The position numbers and the translations under genes are program-made. Positions 1 to 18,589 of a DNA stretch of 37,822 nt are shown piece after piece. This DNA comes from a virus. Its lineage: Duplodnaviria > Caudoviricetes. A model generated the notes under the pieces. It was not told the DNA's origin and did not search any database. It was given only the letters and a program-made list of their open reading frames with translations. Position 1 is the first letter of the stretch. Every line of letters begins with the position of its first letter. The stretch is taken from the IMG/VR virus record IMGVR_UViG_3300008117_000138, positions 1 through 37,822 of that record. One strand, given 5' to 3'.

Positions 1-186
1 CTTCTTTTGCATAAGTCTTACTTGACTCATAACACAATAGCTCATGAAGTATTTCATGCTGCGGTAAGAGTAACTGAGGATCGTGATATTACAGATGAAG
101 AGGCTCAGGCTTGGTTAGCAGGACATATTTCAGGAGTAATTTATAAGTTTTTACAAAAGAAGAAGCTACAAATAAAACATGGCTGA
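1..186 (+). CDS. Partial (5'-truncated) small zincin-like metalloprotease, HExxH
   Basis: Frame 1 is open from base 1: LLLHKSYLTHNTIAHEVFHAAVRVTEDRDITDEEAQAWLAGHISGVIYKFLQKKKLQIKHG*. It has an HEVFH motif and a downstream EEAQAWLAG helix. The TGA stop at 184-186 overlaps the next ATG (179). Not in the supplied ORF track. Confidence 0.75.
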   Translation, partial: LLLHKSYLTHNTIAHEVFHAAVRVTEDRDITDEEAQAWLAGHISGVIYKFLQKKKLQIKHG

Positions 187-3100
187 TAAAACACAGAACC
201 CCGGAGCTGTTACTAATACTTTTACAAAGGGTATGGTAAAAGACCTCAATGACACCTTTGTTGGTGAAGGTCTGTGGACTCATGCCCGTAATGCCGTGAA
301 TAACTCACACGATGGGCAGATGGGCGTTATAGGAAATGAACCTGCTAATCTGCATTGCATCACACTTCCGTATACTCTTATTGGCTGTATTCATCTTAAT
401 GATGACCAGTGGGTTGTCTTTACAACTAACAATATAGATTCTGAGATAGGTATCTTTGACGAGAGTGCTTGTTCTTATACAAAGGTTGTAAATGACAAGT
501 GTCTAAACTTTAAGACTAGTAATCTTATTACTGGTGCCTCACGTAGAAAATTTGATTGTAACAGATTAGTATACTGGGTAGATGGTCTTAATCCAGACCG
601 CTATATAGATATTAATGAGCCTCCGTTTAAGTTTAGAGAAACCATTGTAGACGGGTGTGCAACTAAAATATTACTTCAACCTTTGCAGCTTGATTGTGAA
701 AAAATCAGGATTGCCTCCTTGGTAGCACAACCTTGTTTAAATATAAAGAAAGGAGCTGGTGCAGGGACATTGGCTAACGGTTCTTATCAAGCATTGATAG
801 CTTACACTATTAATGGGGTAAGAGTAACAGACTACATGGGTGCAACTGAAATACAGCCCGTTTGGTCACATCAAAACGTTACAGGTTCTTTAGAGATAGA
901 AGTTATATCCGTAGATCAGACCTTTGATGAGTTTGAGTTAGTCATAATTTCAAATGTTAACCAACAGACTGTAGCTAAAAAAATAGGAATCTACTCAAGC
1001 AATCAAGGTAAAATATATGTAGACACAATTGGCCCTGAGCTTGTAACGGTGCCTTTAACTTTTGTATTACAAAGATCTGAACCAATTGAAAGATCTGATG
1101 CTATGTACAGTGTCAATGATTATCTTTTAAGAATTGGCATTAGATCAAAATATAAGTTTAACTATCAGCCTTTAGCTAATAATATTCAGACTCAGTGGAA
1201 TGCTGTTCAGTATCCAGCACAGTACTATTATAAAGGTGGAAACAACGCAGGCTATCTTAGAGATGAACAGTATGCGTTTTTTATTCGTTGGATCTACAAC
1301 ACAGGAGAACGTTCTGAATCTTATCATATTCCTGGAAGAGCTCCGTTGGCTACAGACACCCAACTTGACTTTGGTTCAGATGCTTATGAAGCTGCAGCTG
1401 GTCTTCAGCGTCAGCGTTGGCAAGTTCAAAATACAGCTACAGTAGACTCTATAACAACGTCTACTTTATCGGATGGAGGTGTTGTTATAGCTAGTGGTAA
1501 GATGGGCTATTGGGAAAGTACTGAAAAGTATCCTGATGATAAACAAGAAATATGGGGTACTCTTTGTGGTAAAAACATTCGTCATCATAAGATGCCTGAT
1601 GAAACAGTAAGTTCTTCATTAAGCCCTTTTAACTCTGACGGTAATAATATAGTAGTTCTTGGTGTATCATTTAGTAATATTCAACTGCCGGTAGACTTGA
1701 ACGGAAATGTTATTAGTTCTGTAGTAGGATATGAAATTTTAAGAGGAAGCAGAGAAGGTCAGAAGAGTATTATAGCAAAAGGACTTATTAATAATTTAAG
1801 GGAGTATGATATACCTGGGACAACTATTAAGGGATTATATCAGAACTATCCTTATAATGATCTTAGCTCAGATTTTTATTTAACATCAAGTCTTTCTATT
1901 ATAGATCCTGAAGCCGGCTCTGTGGTAAGTCCAACAGGTGATGATGCAGATTTGCAGAGTGAACCTAATGAAAATGGAATATCAAATAGAGAAGCAAGAC
2001 GGAGGCTTAGAGAGGCTAGACGTCAATTAAGAAGAAGTAGTGAAAACGGAGGTGTTCTATTAGACTATCCTTTGAGCTTATATAAGAAAGATTATCTTTC
2101 ATTTCATAGTCCTGATACTACTTTTACAAGACCGTTTCTTGGTATTACTGAATTAAAAGTATACCAAGAGGTATATGGTACTTCTAAAGGTAGTTTTACT
2201 ATACCATATAAGCATCCTAAGTTTAAGTCGGTAACAAACTTTGCTGGAATATTTTCAAGTGTTATAGGAATTATAAGTACCATAGGAAATGTTCTTTCTG
2301 CTATTGCTGAGAATGGTAATATAACATTAGGTAAAACTGAAAACTTACCGTACGAGAAAGTGTTGACTTTGTCTAAGGTTACAAACTTTCCTGTAGGGGG
2401 TTCATTTTTAGGTTCAGGTGTTACTATTCCTAACCCAGTTATTGTTGTTACTAATAGCATTATTGGAACTTATAATGTAAGCATGAGCGTAGCAATGTCT
2501 TATTTAGAAGCTACAGCAGTAGGAGAAAAAATTCTAAATATTATTTATGGTATGATACCAAGGCGTCAGAATGCATTGCAGTATGACTCTCATGGTTTCT
2601 ACAATAAAGGAAAGATTACACCTGAAGGAGATAGACGCTTTGAGATTAAGAACTCTACATACGTAGATTCTAATATTCAGAGCTTTAACTTTGACTATAA
2701 CATAAACAACGTTTTAAGATCTAACTACGTTTCACTTAATATATCACGTGATAAGCAGAATCCTACTGTAATTGATGACTCAAGATTTAGAATCAATAGA
2801 GCTAACGGAAAGATTAACCGTGTAGTAGATGCTACCATATCTGGACATTATGGAGCAGTAAAAGTGACTTTTCCATCTCAGTACGGACAGCTTGATCAGA
2901 TTAAGCAGGTACCTGTGTCACAATGCGTACATTCTATTAATACAGAGGTACCAAGACAAGTTACTGGTGTACTATTTAATGGGGATACCTATATTAATCG
3001 CTTTACAGAAAAGAACTCTTTCTTCTTCTTTAATTCTTGGTTAATGGGTGAGCCTGATGAAACAGAGTTTGATTATAGAAACTATGTAAACATAGCATAC

Positions 3101-4870
3101 CCAAGATTCTGGATAGATTCAGAAAGACCAAGTTTTGGTTTATTTAGCAGTGCTACCAACTATCGTCACTTAGACGAAAGAACAAGCTCAGCATTTTTTG
3201 TAAGTAAAGGGTATTTCTATCTTTTTAATTCCGGGGTACGCGACTTCTTTGTAGAAAGTGAGGTTAACTTGGCATATCGTGACTGGGAAGATCTAATAGA
3301 AAAACGTCACTACGACCCCTACAACTTCTCTGACTATAGATCTATGTTTAGATCTGATGTTATCAAGAGTACTAATTTTTACAAGTACGATTACTCTTTA
3401 AGTATTAGTAAGCTTTTTAACCAGTATGTGTCTTATGGAAACTTACTTCCAAGATACTATGATCCTAAAAAGTTTAATAGCTGTTTTACCTATTATCCTA
3501 ACCGGGTAATATATTCTTTACAGCAACAGTCGGAAGGAGTAAAAGATAACTGGAGAGTATTCCTGGCTAATAACTATAAGGATTTTAATTCACCGATTAC
3601 TTCTATAAAGCTTGTTAATAAAACAGGTGCATTGTTTATGATGGAGCGTCAGAGTCCGCTTCAGTTTATGGGCGTAGACCAACTTCAGACAGATGCAGGC
3701 ACTAAGATTACAGTGGGTGATGGTGGACTATTTAATCAGCCTTTGCAGAACATAGTTAACTCAGATGAGTCATATGAGTATGGAAGCTGTCAGAATAAGT
3801 TTGCCACACTAGGATGTACTCACGGTGTATTTTGGGTAAGCCAAAATCAAGGTAAGGTATTTCAGTATGCAGGTCAACTTAAGGAAATATCCAGAGACGG
3901 AATGAAATGGTGGTTTGCAAGATATTTACCTTCTGAACTTTTAAAGGTATACCCTGAGTATCCATTAAAGGATAACCCCGTTGCTGGCATTGGTGTACAA
4001 ATGATCTATGACAACACCAATGAAATAATCTATATCATTAAGAAGGATTACAAACCTAAGGTAACTAATCTGCTTTATGACGCAGGCGGTTTTTATAAAG
4101 TAACTACTGCTGGTAAAGTATACGTCCCGCTCACTGATACAAACAACTTTGAGAGTGCAAGCTGGACTATATCCTATGATCCAAAAAGTCAAACCTGGTT
4201 AAGTTTTCATGACTGGATTCCTAGCTTCTTAATTCCTGGTAAAGCTCATTTTATGAGCGTAAACATGAATTCTATATGGAAGCACAACGTACGTTGTGAC
4301 AAGTATACTAACTTCTATGGTATAGATTATCCTTTTGAAGTGGAGTTTGTTTCATCAACAGGGCAGCAAGTAGCATCCATGAGAAATGTAGAGTACCTGT
4401 TAGAAGCTTACAAGACTCACAATGAATGCCGGGATAAGTTCCATGTATTGGATCTAAACTTTGATCAGGCTATTGTTTATAACTCTGAACAGGTTTCTGG
4501 TTTATTAGAACTTGAATTAAAAAGCAAGGTTAATCCTGTGACGCTTATAAACTATCCTCAGATTCGTACTCAATCAATTGGGATTCATTACTCTAAAGAA
4601 GAGCAGAAGTATCGTTTTAATCAGTTCTGGGATATAACCAAGGACCGTGGGGAGTTTGCACCAGGAGTTAATATACCTATGTTTAATACTCGTCCTAATG
4701 GATATGAGTTTAACATTAACCCTGCATATGTAAATTATCAGAAAGCACCTTTAGAGCATAAGAAGTTTCGTCATAATGTAAACAAGGTCTTTCTACGTAA
4801 ACTGAAGAGTGATGATGTAAAATATTTATTTAAGATGTCTAATCAAAAGATTCTACAAAGTCTTAGGTAA
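179..4870 (+). CDS. Tail stabilisation / muzzle-like virion protein (crAss-like, P22 gp10-related)
   Basis: 1563 aa, beta-rich and aromatic-rich, with many Cys. N-terminal NTFTKGMVKD...ARNAVN...GNEPAN and C-terminal WTISYDP...WLSFHDW..P resemble crAss-like stabilisation proteins. It lies directly upstream of the cargo/RNAP genes, as in Crassvirales. Confidence 0.75.
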   Translation: MADKTQNPGAVTNTFTKGMVKDLNDTFVGEGLWTHARNAVNNSHDGQMGVIGNEPANLHCITLPYTLIGCIHLNDDQWVVFTTNNIDSEIGIFDESACSYTKVVNDKCLNFKTSNLITGASRRKFDCNRLVYWVDGLNPDRYIDINEPPFKFRETIVDGCATKILLQPLQLDCEKIRIASLVAQPCLNIKKGAGAGTLANGSYQALIAYTINGVRVTDYMGATEIQPVWSHQNVTGSLEIEVISVDQTFDEFELVIISNVNQQTVAKKIGIYSSNQGKIYVDTIGPELVTVPLTFVLQRSEPIERSDAMYSVNDYLLRIGIRSKYKFNYQPLANNIQTQWNAVQYPAQYYYKGGNNAGYLRDEQYAFFIRWIYNTGERSESYHIPGRAPLATDTQLDFGSDAYEAAAGLQRQRWQVQNTATVDSITTSTLSDGGVVIASGKMGYWESTEKYPDDKQEIWGTLCGKNIRHHKMPDETVSSSLSPFNSDGNNIVVLGVSFSNIQLPVDLNGNVISSVVGYEILRGSREGQKSIIAKGLINNLREYDIPGTTIKGLYQNYPYNDLSSDFYLTSSLSIIDPEAGSVVSPTGDDADLQSEPNENGISNREARRRLREARRQLRRSSENGGVLLDYPLSLYKKDYLSFHSPDTTFTRPFLGITELKVYQEVYGTSKGSFTIPYKHPKFKSVTNFAGIFSSVIGIISTIGNVLSAIAENGNITLGKTENLPYEKVLTLSKVTNFPVGGSFLGSGVTIPNPVIVVTNSIIGTYNVSMSVAMSYLEATAVGEKILNIIYGMIPRRQNALQYDSHGFYNKGKITPEGDRRFEIKNSTYVDSNIQSFNFDYNINNVLRSNYVSLNISRDKQNPTVIDDSRFRINRANGKINRVVDATISGHYGAVKVTFPSQYGQLDQIKQVPVSQCVHSINTEVPRQVTGVLFNGDTYINRFTEKNSFFFFNSWLMGEPDETEFDYRNYVNIAYPRFWIDSERPSFGLFSSATNYRHLDERTSSAFFVSKGYFYLFNSGVRDFFVESEVNLAYRDWEDLIEKRHYDPYNFSDYRSMFRSDVIKSTNFYKYDYSLSISKLFNQYVSYGNLLPRYYDPKKFNSCFTYYPNRVIYSLQQQSEGVKDNWRVFLANNYKDFNSPITSIKLVNKTGALFMMERQSPLQFMGVDQLQTDAGTKITVGDGGLFNQPLQNIVNSDESYEYGSCQNKFATLGCTHGVFWVSQNQGKVFQYAGQLKEISRDGMKWWFARYLPSELLKVYPEYPLKDNPVAGIGVQMIYDNTNEIIYIIKKDYKPKVTNLLYDAGGFYKVTTAGKVYVPLTDTNNFESASWTISYDPKSQTWLSFHDWIPSFLIPGKAHFMSVNMNSIWKHNVRCDKYTNFYGIDYPFEVEFVSSTGQQVASMRNVEYLLEAYKTHNECRDKFHVLDLNFDQAIVYNSEQVSGLLELELKSKVNPVTLINYPQIRTQSIGIHYSKEEQKYRFNQFWDITKDRGEFAPGVNIPMFNTRPNGYEFNINPAYVNYQKAPLEHKKFRHNVNKVFLRKLKSDDVKYLFKMSNQKILQSLR

Positions 4871-7800
4871 TGAACAAGCTATTACAACATATTATTAATG
4901 CTGGTGATGTAGACCACAAGATACTTCCTTCACTTCTGAAGATGGATGAAGGAGGAGAACTCATAAAACTTAAAGACTCTAAAGGTCGTGTGCGTGAGTA
5001 CAACACTGAGTCTCGTAAGTATAAACGCTTATATGACCAAGGTAAGATAGGCAGTTGGTCAAAGTTTGATCAAGGATCAGGTAAATGGGTATCTTCAGAT
5101 GCTTCAGATCCTAATGCAGAATTTGTTTCTTCCCCTAAAATACTTCCTGAGGTTGTTGTATCTTCTAAAGTTAAACCTAATAGTTTAGGTAGCTATTCAT
5201 CATCTTTTTATAAAGAGAACCCGTATGAAGACTTTTACAGAAATCGTTACCAGCAAGAAAAAGAAGAGTTTGAAAGTGCTCCAGGATGGGCACAACAGTC
5301 TGTAGGAGGATGGGATAGAGACTCTAGGCAGAAAAATGTAAGAGATCAGATTAATGAAGAGTACCAGAAAAAGTATTCTGACTATGTAGCTAGTAAGTTA
5401 ATTGGCAGAAATCCTCAAGGTAGCCAAAGTAGAGATACATGGTTATCTAACAAAAATTTTACTCCTAGAGAACTTCAAGTTCTTACGGGTAGTCAGAAAC
5501 TGCCACAGCCTAATCTTTGGGCACAAGGTGTACAGGGTCTATATAATACGGGAGACATGTTAACTTTTGGATCACTTCCTGAGTTAGCTATGCCCGGTAT
5601 TGCACGTTCAGAAGTACAGAACTATAATAATCCATTGCTTGCATTAGCACCTTTAAGCGTACCTGCAAAAATGGTTCAGTCTGTATATAAAGATAACTAC
5701 TCACTTGGAGATGCATTAGCTGGAAGACCCAATGATGCAGGCATTGCTGAAGATATTGCTACAGATCCTCTTACTTATCTGTCGTTTGGTACAAAACCCT
5801 TACTTACTGGTGCGGCTAGACTTAGTAGACTTTCTTCACCTTACTTAAATAGAGCAGCCAGATTTGTACCACAGGCTGTAAAAAACAATTTGCAGTTTTT
5901 AAAGAATACTAAAGGTACAGGTGTAACCCAGCTACCTGAAAGTGGTTACGTTTCTGGTTCATATGTTCCAGACTACATGAAAGGTGTAGAAGTAGTTGAT
6001 CCAGAAACCGGGGTAAGCAAAATTGTTTTTCAGCTTGAAGATGATATTTTACCTCCTCCACCAACAGAACAGTGGAATCTTATTGACTATAGTAATGTTC
6101 CTAGTTTTATTGATAACTTACCAGGTATTGTTAATAAACCTTCAACGTTATCAGTTTTAAAGAACAAGGCTTTAGCTTCTGGTACTAAATTAAAAAACAA
6201 ACTTTTTCCTGAAAACTATCATGACTACGGAAAACCCTTTGCAAATAGAAGGTATGACAGTTGGGCTCATGATATACATCCGGATCTTCCTGATGTCTTA
6301 CAGCCTGGAGAGTTAAAAAATCTTCATAAAGAAGCTATCAGACATTTTGGCGGTAGACAAGGTGTTTCTGATTTAGGACAGTTTGCTAATAAAAATATAG
6401 GACTATATGTAAGAGATAGACTTGCAAACAGAATTCCAAGTTATACCAAGCCAACTGTTGTAGATGAAACTACAGGGTTAATTAAGAACTATGGTCCTAA
6501 TAAAAAACACCCAAGTTTAGCAGGGAAAGATGCTGCTAATGAAATAATCTATCCGCAGCTAATGTATTCTCATACGTACGATCAAGCAAGATTAGATATA
6601 CTTCGTACCCCATATCAGAAGTGGGGATATGATATTTCTAAACTTAATCCTTCTCAATTAAACTTGATGGACTCATATGCTAGAGGATATAATGATTTTT
6701 TTAACAGTTATGGTAGAGGCTTTGCTAGCCCTATTAAAACTAAGACAGGAGATTTTTATGCTGATAAAGTACAGCAACTAAAAAATGCGGTAGTACAAAA
6801 TAAGTTTCCTGAAGCTACTCAAGTAAGAAGAGGAGAAGGTAACTATAATATCAATCTTTTAGATCCTATTACTTACAAGCCAACAGGTAAGGTTAAGTTA
6901 AAAAGTGATTTAGAAGTTGGTGATGTTTATAAGGATGATGGATTTTTATCTACTAGTTTAGACCGTAATTATACTTGGGGGGAAGATGTTGCATCTGAAG
7001 TAATTGATATTCCAGGTGGCATGAAACAGTCTTATGCATATCCTAACGCTATGTCTTCTTCTCCTTATGTAGATGAGCTAGAAGCTATACTTCCTCCTGG
7101 ACTTATAAGAAGAGTTGAAGAAGTAAGACTTCCTAATTCTGATGGTAGATTTTTAAATAATGCAAAGTTTAGAACGTCACTTATTAACCCGTATACTACC
7201 ACAGGACTCTTTTTAGGTGCCGGGGCATTAAAGCAAAAAGAAGAGGGTGGAGAAAATAAACAGTATAGTGGATCAAGTATTGTTGACTATTTAGCAACTA
7301 GAGGTTATAGCGGTAATAAGAAATTTAGAAAACAGCTTGCTCAAGAGTATGGTGTTGAAGGATATGATTATTCTGCAAGAAAGAATTTAGAGTTATTAAG
7401 TAAGCTCAGAGAAAATGATGATCTTCTTGAAGCTCATGAACAGAGTTTTGCTCCAGTTACGCCAGAAAGTTTAGAAGAATTAACAAAGGAAAGAACTAAA
7501 AGGATTGTTGAAACAGCTACACAAAGGGATGAAAGAAAGATTAGTCCTCAAGAGTTTAATCGTAGGATGAGCATGATGATGGGGTTTGATGTATCTCAAG
7601 GTATTCCAAGTGATAGGTTTGTTATTAATACACCTAAACTTTCTTTGTCTCCAAAAGTAAAGTATGATAAGTTTTCGCTTATACCAAGAATGGAGAATAA
7701 GAGTATTGATTTAAGTTCAACAAAGCCTGATAAACCAGAGGTTATACAACAAGTTGCACCACCTGTTGAGAAGCAGCCTGTTGTAAACAACACAGGATTT

Positions 7801-10122
7801 AGATTTGATTTAAACCCTACACAAAAACAGGGTATAAATCCTTTGCCGTTTTATAACCCATTTATACCGGGTAACATGACAGTGGCGGGTACCAATACAC
7901 CTGTTGCTCCAGCTACCGTAAATACTTCTAAACCACAACAAAAGCAAACTGTTATTGATAAACCTTGGTATGAAGATGCTTGGGACGCAGCATCATCTGC
8001 ATTGAATACAGCTGAAGATTATGCATCAGATGCATGGCAGGGTATTTCAACTGCTCCAGCTAAAGTTTCAAAATGGTGGTCAGACGGAATAAACAATAGT
8101 ATTCTGGGACAGGGTAATGTAACAATGAATCCTTATGGTTTTACTCCTCAAGGGGCAAAAGCAATGGCAGATGACTTAATGTCTATCATGCCTGAAGCTG
8201 TTCAAGATCTTTGGGAAAAAGCAAAAAATAGTAATGAAAGAAGTAAAGCTAAAAATAACCCAAGTCTTGTTGAAAGAAAAAGTGGTTTAGATCCTACTAA
8301 ACTAAAGTATGATCCTGTTTATATAACTGGTGACACTTTAAAAGACAATGCCAGAAGGTACCACATACCTGAGGTAATGGATCTGGATTACATGCGTTTT
8401 GGAGTAAGAAACCGAGGAGACTATTCTGAGCTAAACACAGAAGGTGCACCTATAACTACTTTTGAACCATTTGTAAGTTCTAAAAAATATTTTGCTACTA
8501 GTAAAGATCCTGCTAATGCTACATATATAGGTATATCTACGGACGGCAGGGTAAAAGTGGGCACAAAAGATAAATTTCAGGATAAAGAATATCAGATAAC
8601 TAGGTCTTATGGCAATAAAGTAATAGACTTTAACAGAGATGAAACAGGGAAGATAGTAAAAGTCCCTTCTAATCCTAAAGCTTCTAAAGAAACATTGTCT
8701 CCATCTGTAAAAGTACTTGGGGATGATGGTAAAGCAATAGACGGTAAATTAAGTTTATTGTTGCCTAGAGAAGGTAATCAGGAACAATCATATGACTTAG
8801 TAACAGGTGGTCGGTATATACTTCAAACACCAGATGGTAAAACAAAACTTGTTAGTGGATCACTTAAAAATATAGAAGATGAATTCTATAGGATGAAAGG
8901 TAAGCATCCATGGGTTAATGTTATTACACTTGACAATGGTTCATATTCAAGGGGTCTTAGAACATTTGATCAAAAGTTAACTAAAAAGGATCTCAAAGGA
9001 TATGACAACCAAAATACTGGTGGTGGGAACTTTGCTTATTTATTACCTGGTCAAAAGAAAACTAGATATGACTCCAAGTTTTTTGACTTTGAGCAGGAAG
9101 CTAAGAAAAAACTTCAGGCTAAATATCCAGGAAGGAAAGTAGAAATACGATTCCAGAATGAAGGACTATATGATGAGACTGGAGGACGTGATATTGAAAG
9201 TCAGATTAATATACAAAAAAAGGGAAATTCTAAGACGCCTGTATCTCTTCACAACTTTGGAGCTGCTCGTGACTATATTTTATATGTTGATGGTAAACCA
9301 ATAAATGCGGATGCTAATAAACAACTTTACAAAGATGTTCTTTGGAATGCAGCTGACGCAACCGGTACATATCATCTTGAAGACTGGGACCCCGCTCATA
9401 TATCACTTGCTAAAGAAGGTCAGAAGACTGCGTTTGATGAGCTTGCTAAAAAGTATCCTGATATCTGGGCTAATCCAAACTTCCAAAGAAGTCTAGAGTT
9501 TATTAATAAGAATAAGGCCAACCCTACGTACGAAGAGTACTTTGAAATGTTGAACAACATTGCAGAGTTTACTGGCCAGCCTAAAGTAACTGAGGTTATG
9601 AAAAGAAAAGGTTGGAAGTTTAATAAAGATGGCAAGATTGTAGATAAGAAAGGTAGGCTAGTTAATAAAGCCTCTGGAGGAGCTGTTATAGATCCTCGTG
9701 GTCAATGGGCTTATCCTGGTATGGATACTATAGTACCTACTGCCTCTGGGGATATTACTATGCAAGGTGTTCCTTATCCTGTATATGGAGAAGATGAAAC
9801 CGGCTATGGTCAAATGATGATGCCTGGAGGTGAGTATCAGTTTCCCGGTCAGATGGTGTATGAAACACCTATGATGAAATCAGGAGGTCAGCATGGAGGA
9901 CTAGACAGATGGTTTGCAGAAAGATGGGTGGATGTAAAGACAGGTAAACCATGTGGTAGACAAGAAGGAGAGAACAGAGCATATCCCGCATGTCGTCCTT
10001 CTAGAAGAGTATCATCTCAAACACCAAAGACTTCATCAGAAATGAGTCCAGCTGAGAAGGCTAAGTTTAAAAGAAGTAAAACTTCTTCACAGCGTATAAA
10101 CTATAATCATAAAAGAAATTAA
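4870..10122 (+). CDS. Polyvalent virion cargo protein (ADP-ribosyltransferase + DUF3597-like + M15 peptidase + small modules)
   Basis: 1750 aa, coupled to the upstream gene by a TAATG overlap. Recognisable motifs are listed as separate features. Modules are separated by MDEGG, KEEGG, KASGG and MKSGG. Confidence 0.8.
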   Translation: MNKLLQHIINAGDVDHKILPSLLKMDEGGELIKLKDSKGRVREYNTESRKYKRLYDQGKIGSWSKFDQGSGKWVSSDASDPNAEFVSSPKILPEVVVSSKVKPNSLGSYSSSFYKENPYEDFYRNRYQQEKEEFESAPGWAQQSVGGWDRDSRQKNVRDQINEEYQKKYSDYVASKLIGRNPQGSQSRDTWLSNKNFTPRELQVLTGSQKLPQPNLWAQGVQGLYNTGDMLTFGSLPELAMPGIARSEVQNYNNPLLALAPLSVPAKMVQSVYKDNYSLGDALAGRPNDAGIAEDIATDPLTYLSFGTKPLLTGAARLSRLSSPYLNRAARFVPQAVKNNLQFLKNTKGTGVTQLPESGYVSGSYVPDYMKGVEVVDPETGVSKIVFQLEDDILPPPPTEQWNLIDYSNVPSFIDNLPGIVNKPSTLSVLKNKALASGTKLKNKLFPENYHDYGKPFANRRYDSWAHDIHPDLPDVLQPGELKNLHKEAIRHFGGRQGVSDLGQFANKNIGLYVRDRLANRIPSYTKPTVVDETTGLIKNYGPNKKHPSLAGKDAANEIIYPQLMYSHTYDQARLDILRTPYQKWGYDISKLNPSQLNLMDSYARGYNDFFNSYGRGFASPIKTKTGDFYADKVQQLKNAVVQNKFPEATQVRRGEGNYNINLLDPITYKPTGKVKLKSDLEVGDVYKDDGFLSTSLDRNYTWGEDVASEVIDIPGGMKQSYAYPNAMSSSPYVDELEAILPPGLIRRVEEVRLPNSDGRFLNNAKFRTSLINPYTTTGLFLGAGALKQKEEGGENKQYSGSSIVDYLATRGYSGNKKFRKQLAQEYGVEGYDYSARKNLELLSKLRENDDLLEAHEQSFAPVTPESLEELTKERTKRIVETATQRDERKISPQEFNRRMSMMMGFDVSQGIPSDRFVINTPKLSLSPKVKYDKFSLIPRMENKSIDLSSTKPDKPEVIQQVAPPVEKQPVVNNTGFRFDLNPTQKQGINPLPFYNPFIPGNMTVAGTNTPVAPATVNTSKPQQKQTVIDKPWYEDAWDAASSALNTAEDYASDAWQGISTAPAKVSKWWSDGINNSILGQGNVTMNPYGFTPQGAKAMADDLMSIMPEAVQDLWEKAKNSNERSKAKNNPSLVERKSGLDPTKLKYDPVYITGDTLKDNARRYHIPEVMDLDYMRFGVRNRGDYSELNTEGAPITTFEPFVSSKKYFATSKDPANATYIGISTDGRVKVGTKDKFQDKEYQITRSYGNKVIDFNRDETGKIVKVPSNPKASKETLSPSVKVLGDDGKAIDGKLSLLLPREGNQEQSYDLVTGGRYILQTPDGKTKLVSGSLKNIEDEFYRMKGKHPWVNVITLDNGSYSRGLRTFDQKLTKKDLKGYDNQNTGGGNFAYLLPGQKKTRYDSKFFDFEQEAKKKLQAKYPGRKVEIRFQNEGLYDETGGRDIESQINIQKKGNSKTPVSLHNFGAARDYILYVDGKPINADANKQLYKDVLWNAADATGTYHLEDWDPAHISLAKEGQKTAFDELAKKYPDIWANPNFQRSLEFINKNKANPTYEEYFEMLNNIAEFTGQPKVTEVMKRKGWKFNKDGKIVDKKGRLVNKASGGAVIDPRGQWAYPGMDTIVPTASGDITMQGVPYPVYGEDETGYGQMMMPGGEYQFPGQMVYETPMMKSGGQHGGLDRWFAERWVDVKTGKPCGRQEGENRAYPACRPSRRVSSQTPKTSSEMSPAEKAKFKRSKTSSQRINYNHKRN
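6640..7190 (+). other. R-S-E class ADP-ribosyltransferase domain (VIP2/Alt-like)
   Basis: SYARGYNDFFNSYGRG (Y..Y..N..R helix), VRRG (Arg about 6829), GDVYKDDGFLSTS (STS 6949-6957) and DELEAILPPG (ExE 7075-7083), in the canonical order. Confidence 0.85.
7264..7410 (+). other. DUF3597-like small domain (often appended to cell-wall hydrolases)
   Basis: YSGSSIVDYLATRGYSGNKKFRKQLAQEYGVEGYDYSARKNLELLSKLR matches the recalled SIVDYL..R..LA..YG...Y..A..N..LL..L pattern. Confidence 0.65.
9170..9410 (+). other. Peptidase M15-family Zn domain (Ply500/L-Ala-D-Glu peptidase-like)
   Basis: GRDIESQINIQKKGNSKTPVSLHNFGAARD (SxHxxGxAxD; His 9250, Asp 9271) followed by WDPAH (His 9397). Confidence 0.8.
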
Positions 10123-10132
10123 GATATATCTC

Positions 10133-11617
10133 ATGGCAAACAAACCTAATAACCCAAGCCTCTGGTCTAAAGCTAAGTCTCTAGCCAAACAGAAATTTGA
10201 TGTCTATCCCTCAGCTTATGCAAATGGCTGGGCAGCTAAGTGGTACAAAGGTAAAGGCGGTACATGGCGTAAAGCCGAGTACGGTATGGAGGTACCATAT
10301 ATGGAAGATGGAGGTAAGCCTGAATGGCTTATAGAAGCTCAGCTTGAAGCACAGGGTTATTCTGGTAATGCTCTAGAGCAAAAGATGTCTTCTATGGCAG
10401 AAGGCGGTGAACCACAAAATGCTGGTTTTCAAGCATTGCCTGAGTATGTACAAGAAAAAATAATTAACAATATGGCTTTTGGTGGCTATATCCCTGATAT
10501 GGCTTATGGTGGTGCACAGCAAGCTGCTATTGCTATTGCCATGAAGAAAGCTGGCAAGAAACCAAAGTCTATGCAGAAGGGCGGAGAGCCCGATGGATCT
10601 ATGGCTCTTGGTCAAATTGATGCTGCTATTGATAAGTTACAGAAACTACGTCAGTTTATTCAGCCAGAATCAGACTTAGAACCATGGGTTAGCTCTAAAC
10701 TTACTCTTATGGATCATTATACAGATGCAGTATCTGACTATATGACTTATAACCCAGAAGCTCAAGAGATGCAAGGTCTGCCTATGGAGCAGATGAGAGA
10801 AGGGGGTATACCACAGCGTTACAGAAATATGGGATTTAACAAAGTGGGTGTTAAGAAGAATAGCACAAGACCCGGTAAGAAGTGGATGGTGTTAGCTAAA
10901 AAAGGATCTGATTATAAAGTTGTCCATGGTGGCTATGATGGTATGAAAGACTTTTCTCAGCATGGCTCTCAGAAACGTAAAGAAAACTTTTGGAATCGTA
11001 TGGGAGGAAAGAACTCTTCTAAAGCTACTGATCCGTTTAGTCCGTTATACTGGCATAAGCGTTTTGGTACTTGGCAAGACGGTGGTGAGATACCTGAAAT
11101 GAAAGCAGGAGGTTCTACTTTTTCTGGTAATGCATGGTATGAGATGGGTGGGATGCCTTTATATGATTATGCTTATGGTGGTTACATGCCTGAGATGTAT
11201 AAAGAGGGAGGTATTCATATAGACCCTGCTAAGAAAGGAACATTTAAAGCTCAAGCTACTCGTATGGGTATGAGTGTACAAGAAGCAGCTAATGCTATAC
11301 TAAATGCACCTAAAGGAAAGTACTCTGCAGCTATGCGTAAGAAAGCAAACTTTGCTAAAAACTTTGCAAAAGAAGAAGGTGGTGAACTACCTCAAGCAGG
11401 TAATGGTTGGATTGTTCCAGCAGCTCTTGGAGCTTTAGGTCTTGGTGCTATGATGTGGTCTAATAATAAACGTAAACAGATTGGTAATGCTGTTATGCCT
11501 ATGATGACTTCTGGAATAATGGAGGATGGCGGTCTTACACCTGGAGATGAAATAGAAGTAACTCCAGAAGAACTTCAGATGTTAAAAGACGGTGGTTACA
11601 CCTTTGAAATAATCTAA
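10133..11617 (+). CDS. Beads-on-a-string virion cargo protein made of small modules separated by Phi-x-x-GG motifs
   Basis: 494 aa with 13 Phi-x-x-GG motifs. Modules include PSAYANGW, LEPWVSSKLT..DYM, STRPGKKWMV...HGGY.GMKDFSQH (DUF5754-like) and GIHIDPAKKGTF...KKANFAKN, plus a hydrophobic segment WIVPAALGALGLGAMMW. Confidence 0.8.
   Translation: MANKPNNPSLWSKAKSLAKQKFDVYPSAYANGWAAKWYKGKGGTWRKAEYGMEVPYMEDGGKPEWLIEAQLEAQGYSGNALEQKMSSMAEGGEPQNAGFQALPEYVQEKIINNMAFGGYIPDMAYGGAQQAAIAIAMKKAGKKPKSMQKGGEPDGSMALGQIDAAIDKLQKLRQFIQPESDLEPWVSSKLTLMDHYTDAVSDYMTYNPEAQEMQGLPMEQMREGGIPQRYRNMGFNKVGVKKNSTRPGKKWMVLAKKGSDYKVVHGGYDGMKDFSQHGSQKRKENFWNRMGGKNSSKATDPFSPLYWHKRFGTWQDGGEIPEMKAGGSTFSGNAWYEMGGMPLYDYAYGGYMPEMYKEGGIHIDPAKKGTFKAQATRMGMSVQEAANAILNAPKGKYSAAMRKKANFAKNFAKEEGGELPQAGNGWIVPAALGALGLGAMMWSNNKRKQIGNAVMPMMTSGIMEDGGLTPGDEIEVTPEELQMLKDGGYTFEII
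10301..11533 (+). repeat. Dispersed protein-level repeat Phi-x-x-G-G (13 copies in this ORF)
   Basis: MEDGG, MAEGG, MAFGG, MAYGG, MQKGG, MREGG, WQDGG, MKAGG, YEMGG, YAYGG, YKEGG, KEEGG and MEDGG, read directly from the translation. Confidence 0.9.
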
Positions 11618-11620
11618 CTT

Positions 11621-13333
11621 ATGAAAATACGTATTACAGGAAAAAAGTTACCAAAAGCTCAGTGGGGCAACACGGGTTTGTTTCAAATGGGGCAGTCTTT
11701 ACAGAATGCCATGAAACTAAAACAGAATCCATTGTATGATCCTAATAATCCTGCTGTACAAAATCTAACAGGATCTGCTAGATTTCCTACAGGCTCCATA
11801 TCTCGTTTTGGGCCTATGTCATTGAATCTAGGTCCGGAACAGTATGCATTGACACAAGGATCTGATGGTATTTTAGATAGTTCAAGAGGATTTGTTACAG
11901 AAGAAGATACTAACGCTTTTGATGCATATGACTGGACAAAGGCTAAACAAGTTCCTGAGTATAATAATCTTATGGATGTATTTAATACAGGATCTAAAAA
12001 GCAGATGAGACAATCTGTTAAAGATTACAATAAACAGTTTGGAACAAATGTCAAAGGCCCAGGTCTATTTACTATGGGTGCTAAAGGCAGGGAAACAATG
12101 AATCATCTTTCAAATACTTTTAATAAGATAGGTGATGGTATAAAAATAGGTACTGTAATAGGATCTGCTATTACAAATCTTGCAGACGCTAGGAAAAAAG
12201 AAAAAGAGTTTAATCGTTGGAAAAGAAGTCAGCTTAACTCTGATTATTTATCTATGCCTGTTGAAGGTTCTCGTGGAGATTATGTAGCTAGCGGTTCTCG
12301 GTTTGGGGAATTTAGACCTGATGATTATGTTGTTAATAAAGGAATGTATACAGGACAGTTCTTTCCAAGAATGATGCAGTCAGGAGGTGTAATTCCAGAA
12401 GCATTATCATTTCCTATAACTCCTATGGAGGCTAATATAAGTACTGCACCAGCAGTTGAGCCTGAAGTTTCATCTTCTAAAGAGTCATCTTCTAAATCAT
12501 ATCGTTCATCTGGAGCTAATGAAGAAGCTGAACAAACATGGAGTGATATATCTAACGAGTATAAGGGAGTAGAGAACTGGGGAATATGGGGTGATGCAAG
12601 ACATAAGAAAACTAAAAGTGATCACAATAGTGGTGATGCATTAGACATTGGTATTTCTAGTGAAGATCAGGGTACTCAGATTGCTCAAAAACTAATTAAA
12701 GAAGCACAGGAAAGAAATATAAAGTACATCATTTGGAATAAAAAGATATGGAATCCTTCTGTATCAAATGACTGGAGACCTTACAGTGGTGATAGTCCTC
12801 ATACAGATCATGTACATGTAAGTTTTAATAGAAACCCAGAAACTCTTGGTCAGATATCGTTGACACACAACAACCCTTTAAACATACATCATGGCGACTT
12901 TTCTCAAAAGTATGGCGGCAAGCAAGGATCTAAAGATGGGGGTGGTTATGTAAGCATGTTCCCGGATCTAAATACAGGGATACAAGCTGCAAAAGATCTT
13001 TTGTTTGGACCTAATTATTCCAACCTGACTATTTCTCAGGCTAGAAATAAATGGGTAAAGGGTGATCCGGGTGTTACAAGTGAATCATCGTCACACATCG
13101 TAAAAGCAATAGGAGCTGATAAACGGATAAGTGAGCTAAGTGCTGCTGAAAAAGAACAGCTTCTTAAACTGTTTGCAAAGTGGGAAGGTAAGCAAGCTTA
13201 TAATAAGATAAAAGAAATGAAGTTGTTTGAAGAAGGTGGCCTAGTTTCTTATGCTCAAGATGGCGTATACGAGCTGACAGAAGATGAAATAAAATCTGTG
13301 TTAGCAGCCGGGGGTGAAGTAGAATTTATATAA
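11621..13333 (+). CDS. Virion cargo protein with tandem peptidoglycan hydrolase domains (M15-like Zn peptidase + lysozyme-like)
   Basis: 570 aa. SDHNSGDALD...YIIWNKKIW...HTDHVHVSF at 12578-12826. HNNPLNI...FPDLNTGIQAAKDLL...LTISQARNKW...AKWEG at 12866-13190 resembles NNPGNI-type virion lysozyme-fold proteins. Confidence 0.75.
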   Translation: MKIRITGKKLPKAQWGNTGLFQMGQSLQNAMKLKQNPLYDPNNPAVQNLTGSARFPTGSISRFGPMSLNLGPEQYALTQGSDGILDSSRGFVTEEDTNAFDAYDWTKAKQVPEYNNLMDVFNTGSKKQMRQSVKDYNKQFGTNVKGPGLFTMGAKGRETMNHLSNTFNKIGDGIKIGTVIGSAITNLADARKKEKEFNRWKRSQLNSDYLSMPVEGSRGDYVASGSRFGEFRPDDYVVNKGMYTGQFFPRMMQSGGVIPEALSFPITPMEANISTAPAVEPEVSSSKESSSKSYRSSGANEEAEQTWSDISNEYKGVENWGIWGDARHKKTKSDHNSGDALDIGISSEDQGTQIAQKLIKEAQERNIKYIIWNKKIWNPSVSNDWRPYSGDSPHTDHVHVSFNRNPETLGQISLTHNNPLNIHHGDFSQKYGGKQGSKDGGGYVSMFPDLNTGIQAAKDLLFGPNYSNLTISQARNKWVKGDPGVTSESSSHIVKAIGADKRISELSAAEKEQLLKLFAKWEGKQAYNKIKEMKLFEEGGLVSYAQDGVYELTEDEIKSVLAAGGEVEFI

Positions 13334-13353
13334 ATTAGTAATATCCAATACTT

Positions 13354-15426
13354 ATGAAATACAAAGTTAGAATTAAGAAAGCTCCAGACATGATGGCTTA
13401 TGGCGGTCAGACAAATTATGGTCTAGATCTTGGAGCTAGAAATGTTTATCAGGATATGGAAGATAGTCCATATGAGAGTGTTTCTAATACTCTGCAACCG
13501 GTAGACAGATCTATAGCAAATATAGAAGCCGAACTTGGTGAAACCGTTGTTGGTGATTTTGATCAAGATGGTCAGAATGAACACATGAAGATTGGGGGTA
13601 AACCTCACTCTCAAGGCGGTACACCGTTAAAAGTTCCTGAAGGGTCTTTTGTATTTTCTAAGACAAAGAAGATGAAGATAGGAGGACCAGTTCTTTCTAT
13701 GTTTGGTAAATCAGCTACAACAAAGAAAAAGTTTTCACCTGCTGAACTTGCAAGACAGTACGACATTAATAAGTATAGAGCTGTTTTAGATGATCCATAT
13801 GCAGATCAGATTTCTAAATCTACTGCTGCTAGAATGATTGATAGTTATGAAAAGAAGCTTGGAGGTTTGGCTCTTCTTCAGGAATCAATGAAAGGATTTC
13901 CTCAAGGTATTCCAAATATTGCTATGCCTTATCTTCAGACTATGATGCCGATGGGTCAGGAGCAAGAAGCACCTATGGCTAAATATGGCGGTTATTATTA
14001 TGATGAGGGAGGAGAGAAAGATGATGTACCTAGAAAAAAGATTTCACCAAAAGAAGTATCTTCTTATGAAGCTCAGGGTTATAAAAGAGTAGGTAATACA
14101 AATGTATGGAGAAAGACAACTTCAGGTAAAGACGTAAAAGATGTCGTTGTAACTCCTGGAGCTGCAGGTAGTTCAACTTCTGGTACCGCTGGTCAAATTG
14201 TTCCTGGTGGTAGAATTACTGGAGACGGTGGTTGGAAAGCCCCGGCAGGTTGTGGAAATTTATTGTACACACCTGAAGATGTAAAAGCAAGACCTGGATG
14301 TTATAATACATTCTTAAATAAGAATGGTTTTAAAGATGCTCCTGAGGAAGATTTGAAAAAGGGTCTTCTAGATTGGAAACGCGGTTACAGACCTACTTAT
14401 AAACCTGGAACACCTCCAACTAAAACTGATCCTAAGCCTGAAACTAAAACTTGTCCTGATGGACCAAATGGAGAAAAGTACACTATAGATCCAAATGATC
14501 CTACCAAGTGTATAAGAGTGTGGGAGAATACTGATGAGGTGTATACTGAAGATACGCCTAGAATTCCTGGTAAGATACCACCTCCTTCTAAAAGAGGTAA
14601 TGACTATCTACCGTTTTTTGGAACACAATTTATGGTTCCTCCTAAAAAGTATCATCCTTATGCTGCACCACTTAATGCTACAATACCTTATCCAACCTTT
14701 TATGATCCAAACCGAGAGCTTGCTGAATTAGCGTCAACTGAAAAAATGCAAGCTGAGTATATGGCTAATTTAGATCCTCAGGCTTACAATGCTCGTCTTG
14801 CTGCTTTGAATGCCCAAGGTGCTGAGCGTAAAGCTAGTACGATAGGTCGTTACCAGAATATGAATGTGGGAGTAGCCAATCAGTTTAGTCCAATGCAGAC
14901 TGACATTATGAACAAGATAATGGCTTATAGAGCTGATGCTATGGACAAAGTTGTTCACAATGCTCAGCAAGAAGATAAAGCTTATAGAAACTCTTGGAGG
15001 ACTCTAGGTAGAAATCTTGATCTTTATAATATAAATAGATACAAGTATAAAACTGAGAAGAATTTACTAAATGCTACAAATCCTTGGTATAATCTAGTAG
15101 ATGGTTTTGGTGGAGCTAACTTGGCTATGAAGCCAGGCGTTACTTGGAATGATATTGTCACAGGTAGAATACCTGGTACAGGATCTTCTTCCGCTGACCC
15201 TAAAGATGTAGAAGCCGAAGCTATCAGACTTAAAGGAACAGGACTGGATGCAGCTACTATCAATGAAATTCTCAGAAGAAAATATCCACAAGCGTCTACT
15301 TCTAGGTCTGGTGTATCTTCTTCAGCTAGAAATTATTTAAACATGACCATGCCTGGTATGACCAGTGGTTATAATGCATATCCATTTAGTACTGGAGGTT
15401 TTGACATTTCTGATTATGGAGACTAA
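13354..15426 (+). CDS. crAss-like virion cargo protein
   Basis: 690 aa. N-terminal ANIEAELGE...GKPHSQGGTP...FVFS module typical of crAss-like cargo proteins, a Pro/Gly-rich centre with 4 Cys, and a Gln/Asn/Ala-rich helical C-terminus. Confidence 0.65.
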   Translation: MKYKVRIKKAPDMMAYGGQTNYGLDLGARNVYQDMEDSPYESVSNTLQPVDRSIANIEAELGETVVGDFDQDGQNEHMKIGGKPHSQGGTPLKVPEGSFVFSKTKKMKIGGPVLSMFGKSATTKKKFSPAELARQYDINKYRAVLDDPYADQISKSTAARMIDSYEKKLGGLALLQESMKGFPQGIPNIAMPYLQTMMPMGQEQEAPMAKYGGYYYDEGGEKDDVPRKKISPKEVSSYEAQGYKRVGNTNVWRKTTSGKDVKDVVVTPGAAGSSTSGTAGQIVPGGRITGDGGWKAPAGCGNLLYTPEDVKARPGCYNTFLNKNGFKDAPEEDLKKGLLDWKRGYRPTYKPGTPPTKTDPKPETKTCPDGPNGEKYTIDPNDPTKCIRVWENTDEVYTEDTPRIPGKIPPPSKRGNDYLPFFGTQFMVPPKKYHPYAAPLNATIPYPTFYDPNRELAELASTEKMQAEYMANLDPQAYNARLAALNAQGAERKASTIGRYQNMNVGVANQFSPMQTDIMNKIMAYRADAMDKVVHNAQQEDKAYRNSWRTLGRNLDLYNINRYKYKTEKNLLNATNPWYNLVDGFGGANLAMKPGVTWNDIVTGRIPGTGSSSADPKDVEAEAIRLKGTGLDAATINEILRRKYPQASTSRSGVSSSARNYLNMTMPGMTSGYNAYPFSTGGFDISDYGD

Positions 15427-15433
15427 ACCTACC

Positions 15434-15484
15434 AAGTTTAGTTTTAAACTTCACAGATTTTTAAGTATATTATTAATGTAACCT
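15434..15484 (+). promoter_or_regulatory. Putative regulatory element: perfect inverted repeat followed by an AT-rich TATATTAT box
   Basis: AAGTTTA-gttt-TAAACTT (15434-15451), then TTTTTAAGTATATTATTAATGTA ending 4 nt before ATG 15485. This is the longest intergenic gap in the operon (58 nt). Confidence 0.45.
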
Positions 15485-18400
15485 ATGGCACAATACCTAC
15501 CCTATATTCCTGAAGTATTTCCGGAGCCGGCCCTGTATAAGCCCGACTTGAACTTCTTTGATAGGATGCTTCAAAGGAAACAGAATCAATTTGAACAGGG
15601 TTTAAATCAGGTAAAGTCTGCGTATAACTCTGTGTTAAATGCACCTCTTTCCGATAAAGCTAATGTTCCTTTAAGGGATGCATACATCAAACAGGCTCAA
15701 GAGAACCTAAAAATTATGGGTTCTTCGGATCTTTCTCTTCCTCAAAATATACAAGCTGCTCAGGGAATCTTCTCTCCTTTTTGGGAAGATGATTTTATTA
15801 GCAAGGATGCTTCGTTAACTAAGTGGTATCAGGGTGAGGCCTCAAAGCTTGCTAGCTGGAGAGATTCCCCAGATGAGAAGGTTCGTTCTAAGTACAATGG
15901 CATTGCTATGATGTATTTGAACAATGGCCTTAGTGCTCTTCAGAATGCTAACCGTAGTGCTGATGCCTACTCTAAAATAGAAAAGCGTCAGGCTGTACCA
16001 TTTACTAATATAGAGCAGTTCCTGCAGGAGCAGGCTAAAGGTCAAGGTCTTGAAATCAAGTATGATGATCCAAATGGAGCTTACTTGGTTGAAACTATTA
16101 ATGGTCAGCGTTCTCAGAAAAAATATAGTGTGTGGGCTCAAAGCTTGGTTGGGAATAACTTCTATGACCAGTTTAGAGTGACCGGTATTGTAGAAAAAGA
16201 AGAACGTGCTAAAGCTATTAAGAAAAGTAATCCTAATCTATCCGAACAAGAAATAGGTAACATTATTGCTAAAGATGTAGTAAGTGAACTACAACAAGGA
16301 TATAAAAAACGTACTGAAGAAGTTGATGTAGAATTATCTAGGGTTAACAGTCTTTTGACTAGTGTAGCTCAGGCTAATAATCCTGCAAACCAAAATCTTT
16401 TTGACAACCTTATTTCTGAACGTGCTAATCTTATAGCTCGTAAAGATGCTATTAATGAAGAGTATAAAAACTTTGATAAGGATACTAAGGACAGATTATT
16501 TAACACAGTAGTTGGAAATCCTGATGGATACTTTGCAACTCTTGCTAAACAGCGTCTAGTTGAAAACTGGGCTACAGGTCGTGCAAGCATTGAATCTAAA
16601 TTAATTAAAGAGAATGCAGCTTGGACTTCTGCTCAGAACTTAAACTTAAGGCAAAAAGAGTATGACTTAAATACTCAAAAAGCTATTTGGGATAGAGATC
16701 AGGACTTGTGGGAAAGGGAACATCCTACTGCAGGTAAAACTAACACAACAAGTGCTGCTAAACTTAAAGATGCCCAAGGTAATGATATAGAAGCTCCTGT
16801 TTTAGGTCAAGATAAAGAAAACTCTATAATGTATAGAGGGTTTTCTGGAATTGATATTACACGTAATCAGGCTACAGCTTTAGATTTGTTTAATCAACTT
16901 CAAAGTAAAGATTTTTCAGAAGCTCATAGTTTGATCTTTGATCAGCAAGGTATTCTCGGTTTAGCTAAAAATCTTGGGTTAACTCAAGAAGAAATAGCTC
17001 ATGTGGCTACAGCATTTCAAAAAGAAGTGGCTAGTGGTAATGCACATAAGTTTACTAAAGAGCAAACTGCTGCTGTAACAAAACTAGAAAAAGCACTAGT
17101 AGCTAATCAAGGAGTAAAGAATGCAGGTATTACATCATTAACAGGACCTGAAACAGCACGTAATGCTCTCATCGCATATGCTCAAGATTATTTTGCTCAG
17201 CGTAACAACCTATCAAAAGATGGCAATGATGTACCTCTTAACAATACTGAGTTTGAAGCATTGATGAGATACATGACTGGTGTAGAAAAACTGAGTAGGT
17301 ACACAGCTAATGAAAAAAACAGAGAAGACTTAATTCAGAAAAATATAGTTTCTAATAAAGAATATGCAAGTCTTGTTGTAGATCGTGGTGGTAAGAAAGA
17401 CCTTATAACTTTATCTGATCTTGCTAAGGATATGCCTACAATGGAGCTTAGAGAAAAGGCATCTAATGAACTAAGAAAGTTTAGTAAAGAAGATGTTGCT
17501 CGTATGTATATGTCAGGTAAGCTTAGCGGGACTAAAATGGGTGAGCTTGTAATTGATGGTAAAGTATATATACCAGAAAAGCTAAATGATATTTCAGGTG
17601 GCTTTGCAGGAAGAAATCCCATTGTAGCTTGGAATACCATGTATGCAGATGTTCTTACGTCAAAGTATGGTGAGTCAAGTGCTTTCAGCAAGCTTATGGA
17701 AAAAGCTAACCAGTCAATAGTTCCTAATCTTTTAATGTATAGAGAGCAGAGTGGTAAGCAAGGAACAGCATGGACATTATATTTTATGCCCAATAAAACT
17801 ATGGGGCAAGGAGACAGGGCAGCTCAGATTGTAGACCAGGCTCTTAACACAGCTAATGCAGATATATATGACAATGGTGCTGATCCTAAACAATTAGACA
17901 CTAAAACAATGGATGCCATTAGGGCTTTGTTGAAAAGTGAAAAGAACATGGAGGAGTACATTGGAGCTGAGTATATTCCTCAAGGAGTTAATGGTAAAAG
18001 AACTCTACGCATAGTGTTTAGTAAACCAATTTCAGAAGAAAGCAAGGCTGCTATTGGAAATGTAAATCTATCATCTATTTCTGGTCAAACATTTAATATT
18101 GTTCTTAAAGATGGAACAACAGCTCCTGCATTAGACGCTTTACCTAACAGCACTGGTTATCAAGTGTATGATATGATTGCAAGAGGTAAAGTATTTAAGA
18201 GTGATCCTGTTATAGAAGCCAGTGGTTTTAAATTTGCTATTACTCCTAATGTAATTACAAGTGAGGGTACTGCAGATGAGCAGCCTTCTTATGTTACAGT
18301 AGATCTTGAGTTCAATAATAGAGTAAATGAAAAAGATCCAAAATCTGGTCAGATGTTAACAACTGTGAAACCACAAAAGATATCTCAGGTTATTCAGCTG

Positions 18401-18589
18401 ACAGGGTCAACTGCAAAAAGTCCTGATGAGATTGTAGAGTACCTCTATGGTTTGTATTATCAGAACATGCTTGATAATAGAAACAGGCAACAGGAGTTTC
18501 AAAACTATATCAAGACAAATCAGAGTGGCTCACGAGCTGACTTTAATGAGCAGCTCAAAGCTCTTGGCCTTGGATATTTGATTAAATAA
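15485..18589 (+). CDS. Large helical virion/ejection protein preceding the vRNAP
   Basis: 1034 aa, no Cys, coiled-coil-rich N-terminal half. Its position matches the first of the giant cargo genes in crAss-like phages. No catalytic motif recognised. Confidence 0.65.
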   Translation: MAQYLPYIPEVFPEPALYKPDLNFFDRMLQRKQNQFEQGLNQVKSAYNSVLNAPLSDKANVPLRDAYIKQAQENLKIMGSSDLSLPQNIQAAQGIFSPFWEDDFISKDASLTKWYQGEASKLASWRDSPDEKVRSKYNGIAMMYLNNGLSALQNANRSADAYSKIEKRQAVPFTNIEQFLQEQAKGQGLEIKYDDPNGAYLVETINGQRSQKKYSVWAQSLVGNNFYDQFRVTGIVEKEERAKAIKKSNPNLSEQEIGNIIAKDVVSELQQGYKKRTEEVDVELSRVNSLLTSVAQANNPANQNLFDNLISERANLIARKDAINEEYKNFDKDTKDRLFNTVVGNPDGYFATLAKQRLVENWATGRASIESKLIKENAAWTSAQNLNLRQKEYDLNTQKAIWDRDQDLWEREHPTAGKTNTTSAAKLKDAQGNDIEAPVLGQDKENSIMYRGFSGIDITRNQATALDLFNQLQSKDFSEAHSLIFDQQGILGLAKNLGLTQEEIAHVATAFQKEVASGNAHKFTKEQTAAVTKLEKALVANQGVKNAGITSLTGPETARNALIAYAQDYFAQRNNLSKDGNDVPLNNTEFEALMRYMTGVEKLSRYTANEKNREDLIQKNIVSNKEYASLVVDRGGKKDLITLSDLAKDMPTMELREKASNELRKFSKEDVARMYMSGKLSGTKMGELVIDGKVYIPEKLNDISGGFAGRNPIVAWNTMYADVLTSKYGESSAFSKLMEKANQSIVPNLLMYREQSGKQGTAWTLYFMPNKTMGQGDRAAQIVDQALNTANADIYDNGADPKQLDTKTMDAIRALLKSEKNMEEYIGAEYIPQGVNGKRTLRIVFSKPISEESKAAIGNVNLSSISGQTFNIVLKDGTTAPALDALPNSTGYQVYDMIARGKVFKSDPVIEASGFKFAITPNVITSEGTADEQPSYVTVDLEFNNRVNEKDPKSGQMLTTVKPQKISQVIQLTGSTAKSPDEIVEYLYGLYYQNMLDNRNRQQEFQNYIKTNQSGSRADFNEQLKALGLGYLIK

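Follow-up and report, generated by a model that had tools for sequence, protein, structure and literature searches.

In polyketide synthases and nonribosomal peptide synthetases (PKS/NRPS), docking domains are short, matched C- and N-terminal elements of complementary charge on consecutive proteins, in gene order. In the donor-strand complementation of chaperone-usher pili, an N-terminal strand completes the neighbour's fold and fixes subunit order, there with an immunoglobulin fold and a chaperone. Here we analyze IMG/VR virus record IMGVR_UViG_3300008117_000138 (hereafter the window, 37.8 kb), which carries nine long genes, all on one strand, and corresponds to a crAss-like phage's tail/cargo block. 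At two of its gene junctions, an acidic motif of 24 residues (strand-helix-Gly-strand; the end motif) closes one protein and a short basic strand (the start strand) opens the next (Table 1). We propose that the two are halves of one small alpha/beta domain that tethers cargo to a terminal protein, the anchor, and put the probability of this split-domain junction as a whole at about 0.66.

Like PKS/NRPS docking domains, the phage elements are matched, terminal and located on consecutive proteins, with position-specific subtypes and complementary charge; unlike them, they make up one apparently split domain on phage carriers, also occur inside proteins and are predicted to bind, and no sequence likeness was found. 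The parallel with donor-strand complementation lies in an N-terminal strand predicted to complete its neighbour's fold and fix order, the difference in the unit itself, ~35 residues of alpha/beta structure appended to unrelated cargo. For crAss001, the published account (PMC10172136) describes cargo encoded by the genes after the muzzle and a protein, gp45 (cargo protein C1), that spans from the tail barrel through the portal and reaches into the capsid. The window proteins share with gp45 the place after the muzzle, Gly-Gly seams and one module (residues 358–415 of open reading frame (ORF) 10133 match gp45 374–421 with 26 bits over 53/55 positions). Unlike them, gp45 is one chain; crAss001 lacks the end motif, and PF25725, the crassvirus cargo protein C1 portal-binding profile, has no match in the window or in 29 anchors.

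Start strands follow end motifs across the family

All four elements lie where the original prediction, made from the bare sequence, had placed them, and the Phi-x-x-G(G) seams said to separate them from the rest of each protein do flank them (MEDGG, KAQWG, FEEGG and MAYGG). ORF 10133–11617 ends in PGDEIEVTPEELQMLKDGGYTFEII and ORF 11621–13333 in DGVYELTEDEIKSVLAAGGEVEFI. DNA identity between the two window junctions is only 44% and 38%, and 27–29% of the codons for conserved residues differ silently when related junctions are compared, so the constraint acts on the protein. At 274 of 285 junctions, a Gly-Gly pair directly precedes the end motif or sits at its start (background 15%; the first Gly of the motif itself raises the tally), and a seam is found after the start strand at 204 (background 19%).

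The pairing was counted in three sets of relatives. In the first (98 loci and the window), a start strand follows the end motif at 98 of 109 unique junctions, compared with 7 of 271 junctions without the motif, the start-strand pattern having been written after these loci were viewed. With model and pattern fixed beforehand, a held-out set of 159 new loci gave 151 of 172 junctions versus 10 of 286 others; the 21 misses are near-miss strands as judged by eye, and held-out genes with only an internal copy of the end motif are followed by a start strand in 12/15 cases. In a third, more distant set, the original profile yielded 35 of 37. Here 36 of the 292 junctions scored as lacking the motif had a strand, and 34 of these 36 end, by eye, in a motif of the type ...IAAGADIEIL, a divergent subtype that the profile missed. 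A looser pattern, written after the third set and matching 1 of 486 background gene ends, found both halves at 222 of 237 unique anchor junctions, neither at 6 and a discordant state at 9 (three lysozyme-type insertions between partners, two internal motifs upstream and four near-misses). At a threshold of at least 10 bits, the end-motif profile has 534 matches on real ORFs and none on reversed ORFs. Among 150 listed library representatives, out of 448 at E ≤0.001, the end motif is present in 137 and C-terminal in 134; the 13 without it are mostly repeat-driven matches. The pairing of end motif and start strand is family-wide and far beyond chance, and the expectation that the C-terminal motif is followed in other genomes by an MK.RI-type start nearly always holds, as the held-out counts illustrate.

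Of five named phages, only Leptolyngbya phage Lbo-JY46 has the end motif, followed by an MKIRIIGLP start; this cultured phage carries one junction, and the module is therefore testable. Lbo-JY46 (PP438436.1) was deposited with a cyanobacterial host, unusual among crAss-like phages, and our literature search found no paper on it. Neither ORF 11621 nor the Lbo-JY46 anchor retrieved any locus when used as a search query. In an unrelated phage, an abundant family of 84–96-aa (amino acid) proteins (L082:8001–8291, minus strand), encoded after a probable capsid gene, has a C-terminus that resembles the end motif, with no start strand in the next gene and no Pfam match; it was excluded from the coupling set described below.

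Chains are directed and lose both halves together

The chains have a direction: first links lack the start strand, middle links carry both halves, and the last link, of the ORF 13354 (anchor) family, has the strand only. Each chain comprises 1–3 junctions. These fall into about four types that follow position in the chain; the aromatic type leads to the anchor in 134/135 cases and the acidic type to a non-anchor in 92/93, although orthology confounds selectivity for cognate over non-cognate partners in this comparison. We infer pairing preferences among the types. Many junctions have gaps of -1 to 4 nt (nucleotides), and partners stay paired over gaps of -4 to ~60 nt, and also where a promoter-like element or additional genes lie between them, among the latter small lysozyme-like genes without either element placed between junction partners (L003:7221–7667, L004:5300–5704 and L050:9433–9894). 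Joining of the halves by stop read-through was ruled out, as gap lengths fall in every frame. The idea that translation begins at internal start strands was likewise discarded: upstream DNA resembles that of other internal Met codons (24 contexts, best score 0.4 vs a median of 7.1 for true starts).

A quick tree of 110 of the 331 anchor domains places the loci with neither half at three points: a clade of seven loci (SH-aLRT, Shimodaira–Hasegawa-like approximate likelihood ratio test, 99), the single locus L181 and the long branch L270, whose placement is unsure. The seven-locus clade and L181 are each nested among relatives with both halves, and their genomes retain an intact upstream junction. 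Members of the clade have an end motif that lost its last strand and turned basic, and a partner that lost its start strand. Both halves decayed together in two separate lineages. Independent occurrence of the two motifs, which had been named as one outcome that would speak against docking, was found neither in the held-out adjacency nor in this shared loss.

A candidate DUF7210-like split domain

The end motif resembles the second half (Gly-strand-helix-Gly, positions 17–36) of DUF7210 (PF23843), a known small domain of phages. End motif 1 scores 17 bits, motif 2 has no match and the motif of locus L037 reaches 22.4 bits, against a curated cut-off of 27 bits. When the end-motif profile was compared with a profile built from 15 natural, intact DUF7210-like members, hhalign gave a probability of 78% (E 1.8e-5), again over the second half only. 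The intact members carry the first strand in cis, often followed by Pro, where the crAss motifs have a Gly seam; the end motifs differ from DUF7210 in lacking this strand and hairpin in cis as well as in their sub-cut-off scores, and the start strand is not significantly alignable to the family. Upstream of the end motif, no strand-like match to the DUF7210 first strand and hairpin was found at 285 junctions (median score -6). The start strand resembles that first strand by pattern.

Residue couplings across the gene boundary fit a start strand that would insert antiparallel between the two strands of the end motif. For 285 paired junctions (108 effective), total covariation stays above permutations within positional classes, and the top signals between C-side and N-side positions are C+5/N-2 (acid-base or hydrophobic-hydrophobic) and C-16/N+3. 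A pseudo-likelihood model of 349 pairs (121 effective) ranks C-10/N-2, C-13/N-1, C+5/N-2, C-7/N0, C+2/N+3, C+6/N-1 and C-15/N+1, of which C-13/N-1, C-15/N+1, C+2/N+3, C+6/N-1, C-10/N-2 and C+5/N-2 run with constant index sums on both strands. At C+4/N+1, charges are opposite in 80% and alike in 2%, and the mean charge is -4.6 for the end motif versus +4.0 for the start strand. We consider it quite probable that end motif and start strand bind each other.

The original prediction proposed that the two elements together resemble a mini-domain like the N-domain of ribosomal bL9, divided between neighbouring proteins. The division is supported, in that the end motif corresponds to a DUF7210 second half without its first strand and the couplings fit a strand from the next protein; as for the fold, no L9 sequence match to the end motif was found in Pfam and PDB searches. 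The topology with a central first strand that we take to be shared by the bL9 N-domain, the GINS B domain and the lambda gpFI N-domain, in bL9-N within a three-stranded sheet plus a helix, does fit the coupling pattern, with no Pfam or PDB sequence match for any of them. No meaningful PDB sequence match emerged for the end motif, the anchor, the muzzle or DUF7210, and an ESM Atlas search gave only unnamed viral clusters (<0.9). An AlphaFold2 monomer model of the natural ORF 11621 (15 sequences) has a mean predicted local distance difference test (pLDDT) score of 51. It contains a paired strand at residues 2–7 (pLDDT ≥50) beside a stretch below 50 (7–192), and a strand-helix-strand at 549–569, also at ≥50, beside low-confidence linkers. 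The model is only suggestive of a split domain.

Weighing the split domain against alternatives

Several observations count against a split domain, or against its simplest form. The antiparallel bands that hold 9 of the top 15 couplings (23% expected) were drawn after earlier coupling results and from a presumed topology, the coupling set amounts to ~120 effective sequences with shared ancestry, and direct polarity tests are marginal (P 0.09 and 0.07); the couplings are therefore support, not proof. A profile of the start strand fails to align with DUF7210 (probability 0.2%; best strand score 3.5 vs a cognate median of 19.9). The ORF 11621 model is of low confidence and names no partner for strand 2–7, and the pair within it would be non-cognate. 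End motif and start strand each occur internally in 24 contexts, up to four end motifs lie in one protein, so that copy numbers are unbalanced, and genes in which ORF 11621 and ORF 13354 counterparts are fused keep the inner start strand with no end motif before it. The phage csAssE-Sib has a strand-like start and no end motif in its genome, which weighs against strict dependence of the halves. Presence of the cargo-block proteins in the virion is inferred from gene position, and homology of the anchor to gp45 is not significant (hhalign 0.5–1.4%, both within gp45 425–552). Because both halves also occur internally and in several copies, a strict 1:1 form of the head-to-tail chain in the original prediction is an oversimplification; the chain may branch, leave some sites spare or come apart through cleavage at the seams.

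Multiple and internal copies would also suit a repeated tag, and both motifs could be separate addresses for some third component of the virion, be it capsid, portal, scaffold or tail wall, their adjacency stemming from gene origin. In keeping with this, one intact DUF7210 gene (ORFs read by eye) lies just before head-tail genes, in the place of lambda FI, whose product bridges capsid and terminase (PMC13595911), and a basic N-terminus is also seen in crAss001 gp45 and in the phi17:2 anchor, neither accompanied by an end motif. Such addresses would not lead one to expect that a junction loses its two halves and its neighbour keeps them, that couplings are consistent in register or that none of the 188 anchors has an end motif, and we regard them as unlikely. 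A further alternative accepts binding and denies order: the halves may act as multivalent, low-specificity glue or as a clasp within a protein, condensing a cargo core. The unbalanced copy numbers, a charge pattern common to all subtypes and an ORF 11621 model compatible with a non-cognate pair agree with it. Since subtypes track position so closely, and a self-clasp leaves first links without strand and anchors without motif unexplained, we hold this to be distinctly unlikely.

The junction might instead be a genetic cassette, either a recombination seam or a device for translational coupling, that was duplicated within the operon and involves no contact between the proteins. That would suit seam-rich modular genes that fuse and split and the many gaps of -1 to 4 nt; low DNA identity, many silent changes, pairing across ~60-nt gaps and inserted genes, and residue-level couplings make it very improbable. 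We give hardly any credence to a SutA-like RNA polymerase-binding element. Weak SutA-RBD matches were obtained for 23/70 end motifs (best E 1.6e-5), and that domain is a helix and strand with a conserved GG (PMC9300723). Of six members examined against SutA-RBD (PF20661), four score 14–17 bits over 13–16 of 35 positions and two have no match, the cut-off being 29.3 bits; neither window end motif matches SutA-RBD, and the partner strand would be unexplained.

Genomic setting and cargo content

The cargo block begins after ORF 179, whose best named match is Lbo-JY46 (26% identity over 98%), with Flavobacterium phages also matching. As for crassvirus cargo proteins, the genes lie between those for the muzzle and the giant protein, and we regard them as cargo because they follow the muzzle, as in crAss001. 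Only the two hydrolase domains of ORF 11621 found matches in a structure search with its model, none bearing on the mini-domain. Both are modelled with confidence, one resembling the zinc domain of VldE and the other the Enc34 endolysin, so that wall hydrolases are the probable content of this link. The anchor occupies the position of gp45 in crAss001 and resembles its portal-bound domain only weakly. Its family is large, with an estimated 700–1,700 stored stretches per collection matching its patterns.

Table 1. Features of the window (all on the + strand; rmsd, root-mean-square deviation)
Feature	Coordinates	Details
Muzzle-like tail protein gene	179..4870	PHROG virion structural matches; tblastn to phi17:2, FPSV, csAssE-Sib (annotated muzzle there)
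Modular protein with ADP-ribosyltransferase domain, without either junction half	4870..10122	1750 aa
Opening link: end motif present, start strand absent	10133..11617	14 Phi-x-x-GG matches
Gly-Gly seam MEDGG before end motif 1	11519..11533	
End motif 1	11543..11614	Matches DUF7210 positions 17–36 of 38, under family cut-off
Start strand 1, MKIRITGKKLP	11621..11653	Likely partner of end motif 1; modelled strand, residues 2–7
Middle link: two predicted cell-wall hydrolase domains flanked by start strand and end motif	11621..13333	
Predicted zinc peptidase-like domain (VldE C-terminal domain fold)	12512..12832	9flh: Z 13.5, rmsd 2.4, 101 aligned
Predicted lysozyme-like domain (Enc34 endolysin fold)	12845..13249	7q47: Z 9.6, rmsd 3.5, 122 aligned
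Seam FEEGG ahead of end motif 2	13226–13240	
End motif 2 (GG subtype)	13259..13330	Modelled strand-helix-strand, residues 549–569
Start strand 2, MKYKVRIKKAP	13354..13386	Likely partner of end motif 2
Chain terminus, anchor family	13354..15426	Start strand in 181/188 relatives, end motif in 0/188
Seam MAYGG after start strand 2	13393–13407	
Promoter-like AT-rich element, conserved	15434..15471	51/79 gaps of 56–61 nt
Gene after anchor	15485..18589	Start strand in 0/163 relatives

The ADP-ribosyltransferase domain of ORF 4870–10122, which stands in a cargo position, covers residues 590–757; DUF5872 is also present there and weakly matched at the start of ORF 10133. The promoter-like element before ORF 15485 reads AAGTTT...GTATATT and, in relatives, also lies inside one junction class. 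A second sub-threshold DUF7210 match (22881–22952, E 2.1e-4), with an ill-defined last strand, is located in the giant ORF 18609 (4742 aa) and recurs in locus L001. Endonuclease-like genes are inserted directly after the anchor gene at L073:5579, L083:7841–8482 and L003:9611–10141, those in L073 and L083 having first residues identical to those of the gene they precede. In csAssE-Sib (L286:82–2147), a diversity-generating retroelement is annotated beside the tail fibre gene. Entire crAss-like contigs of the same family (L263–L270) are binned in unrelated bacterial and archaeal metagenome-assembled genomes, probably by mis-binning.

Implications for crassvirus cargo

Under the split-domain reading, the basic start strand would slot between the two strands of the acidic end motif of the preceding protein and complete a DUF7210-like domain divided between neighbouring genes. 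Accessory cargo that can be exchanged, for instance the ORF 11621 wall hydrolases, could thereby be tethered to the conserved anchor. The products of separate genes would then act like a single long chain of the gp45 kind, which is packed and passes through portal and tail in a set order, with extra internal copies making the chain branched and not strictly 1:1. If the halves do bind, a role in ordered packing and ejection is moderately likely, and the module may set loading stoichiometry or ejection order, as originally suggested. PKS/NRPS docking and the donor strands of pili already embody the principle; our literature searches, run over mostly open-access listings, found no account of such a module in phage virions.

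The crAss001 study states only that crassvirus cargo order is likely set by packing and cargo-cargo interactions (PMC10172136). For the choice of internal proteins by crassviruses and the order of their ejection, the module names a concrete candidate interaction; it also offers a way in which a payload that varies greatly could remain joined to a conserved core, and it would supply several tiny orthogonal protein connectors. More tentatively, orthogonal split-domain clasps might constitute an assembly code, in which the portal retains the final link and the order of the genes programs that of loading and ejection. If so, the sequence in which hydrolases, effectors and channel proteins enter the tail and the host would be set by gene order, and a new enzyme would join the payload by gaining both tags.

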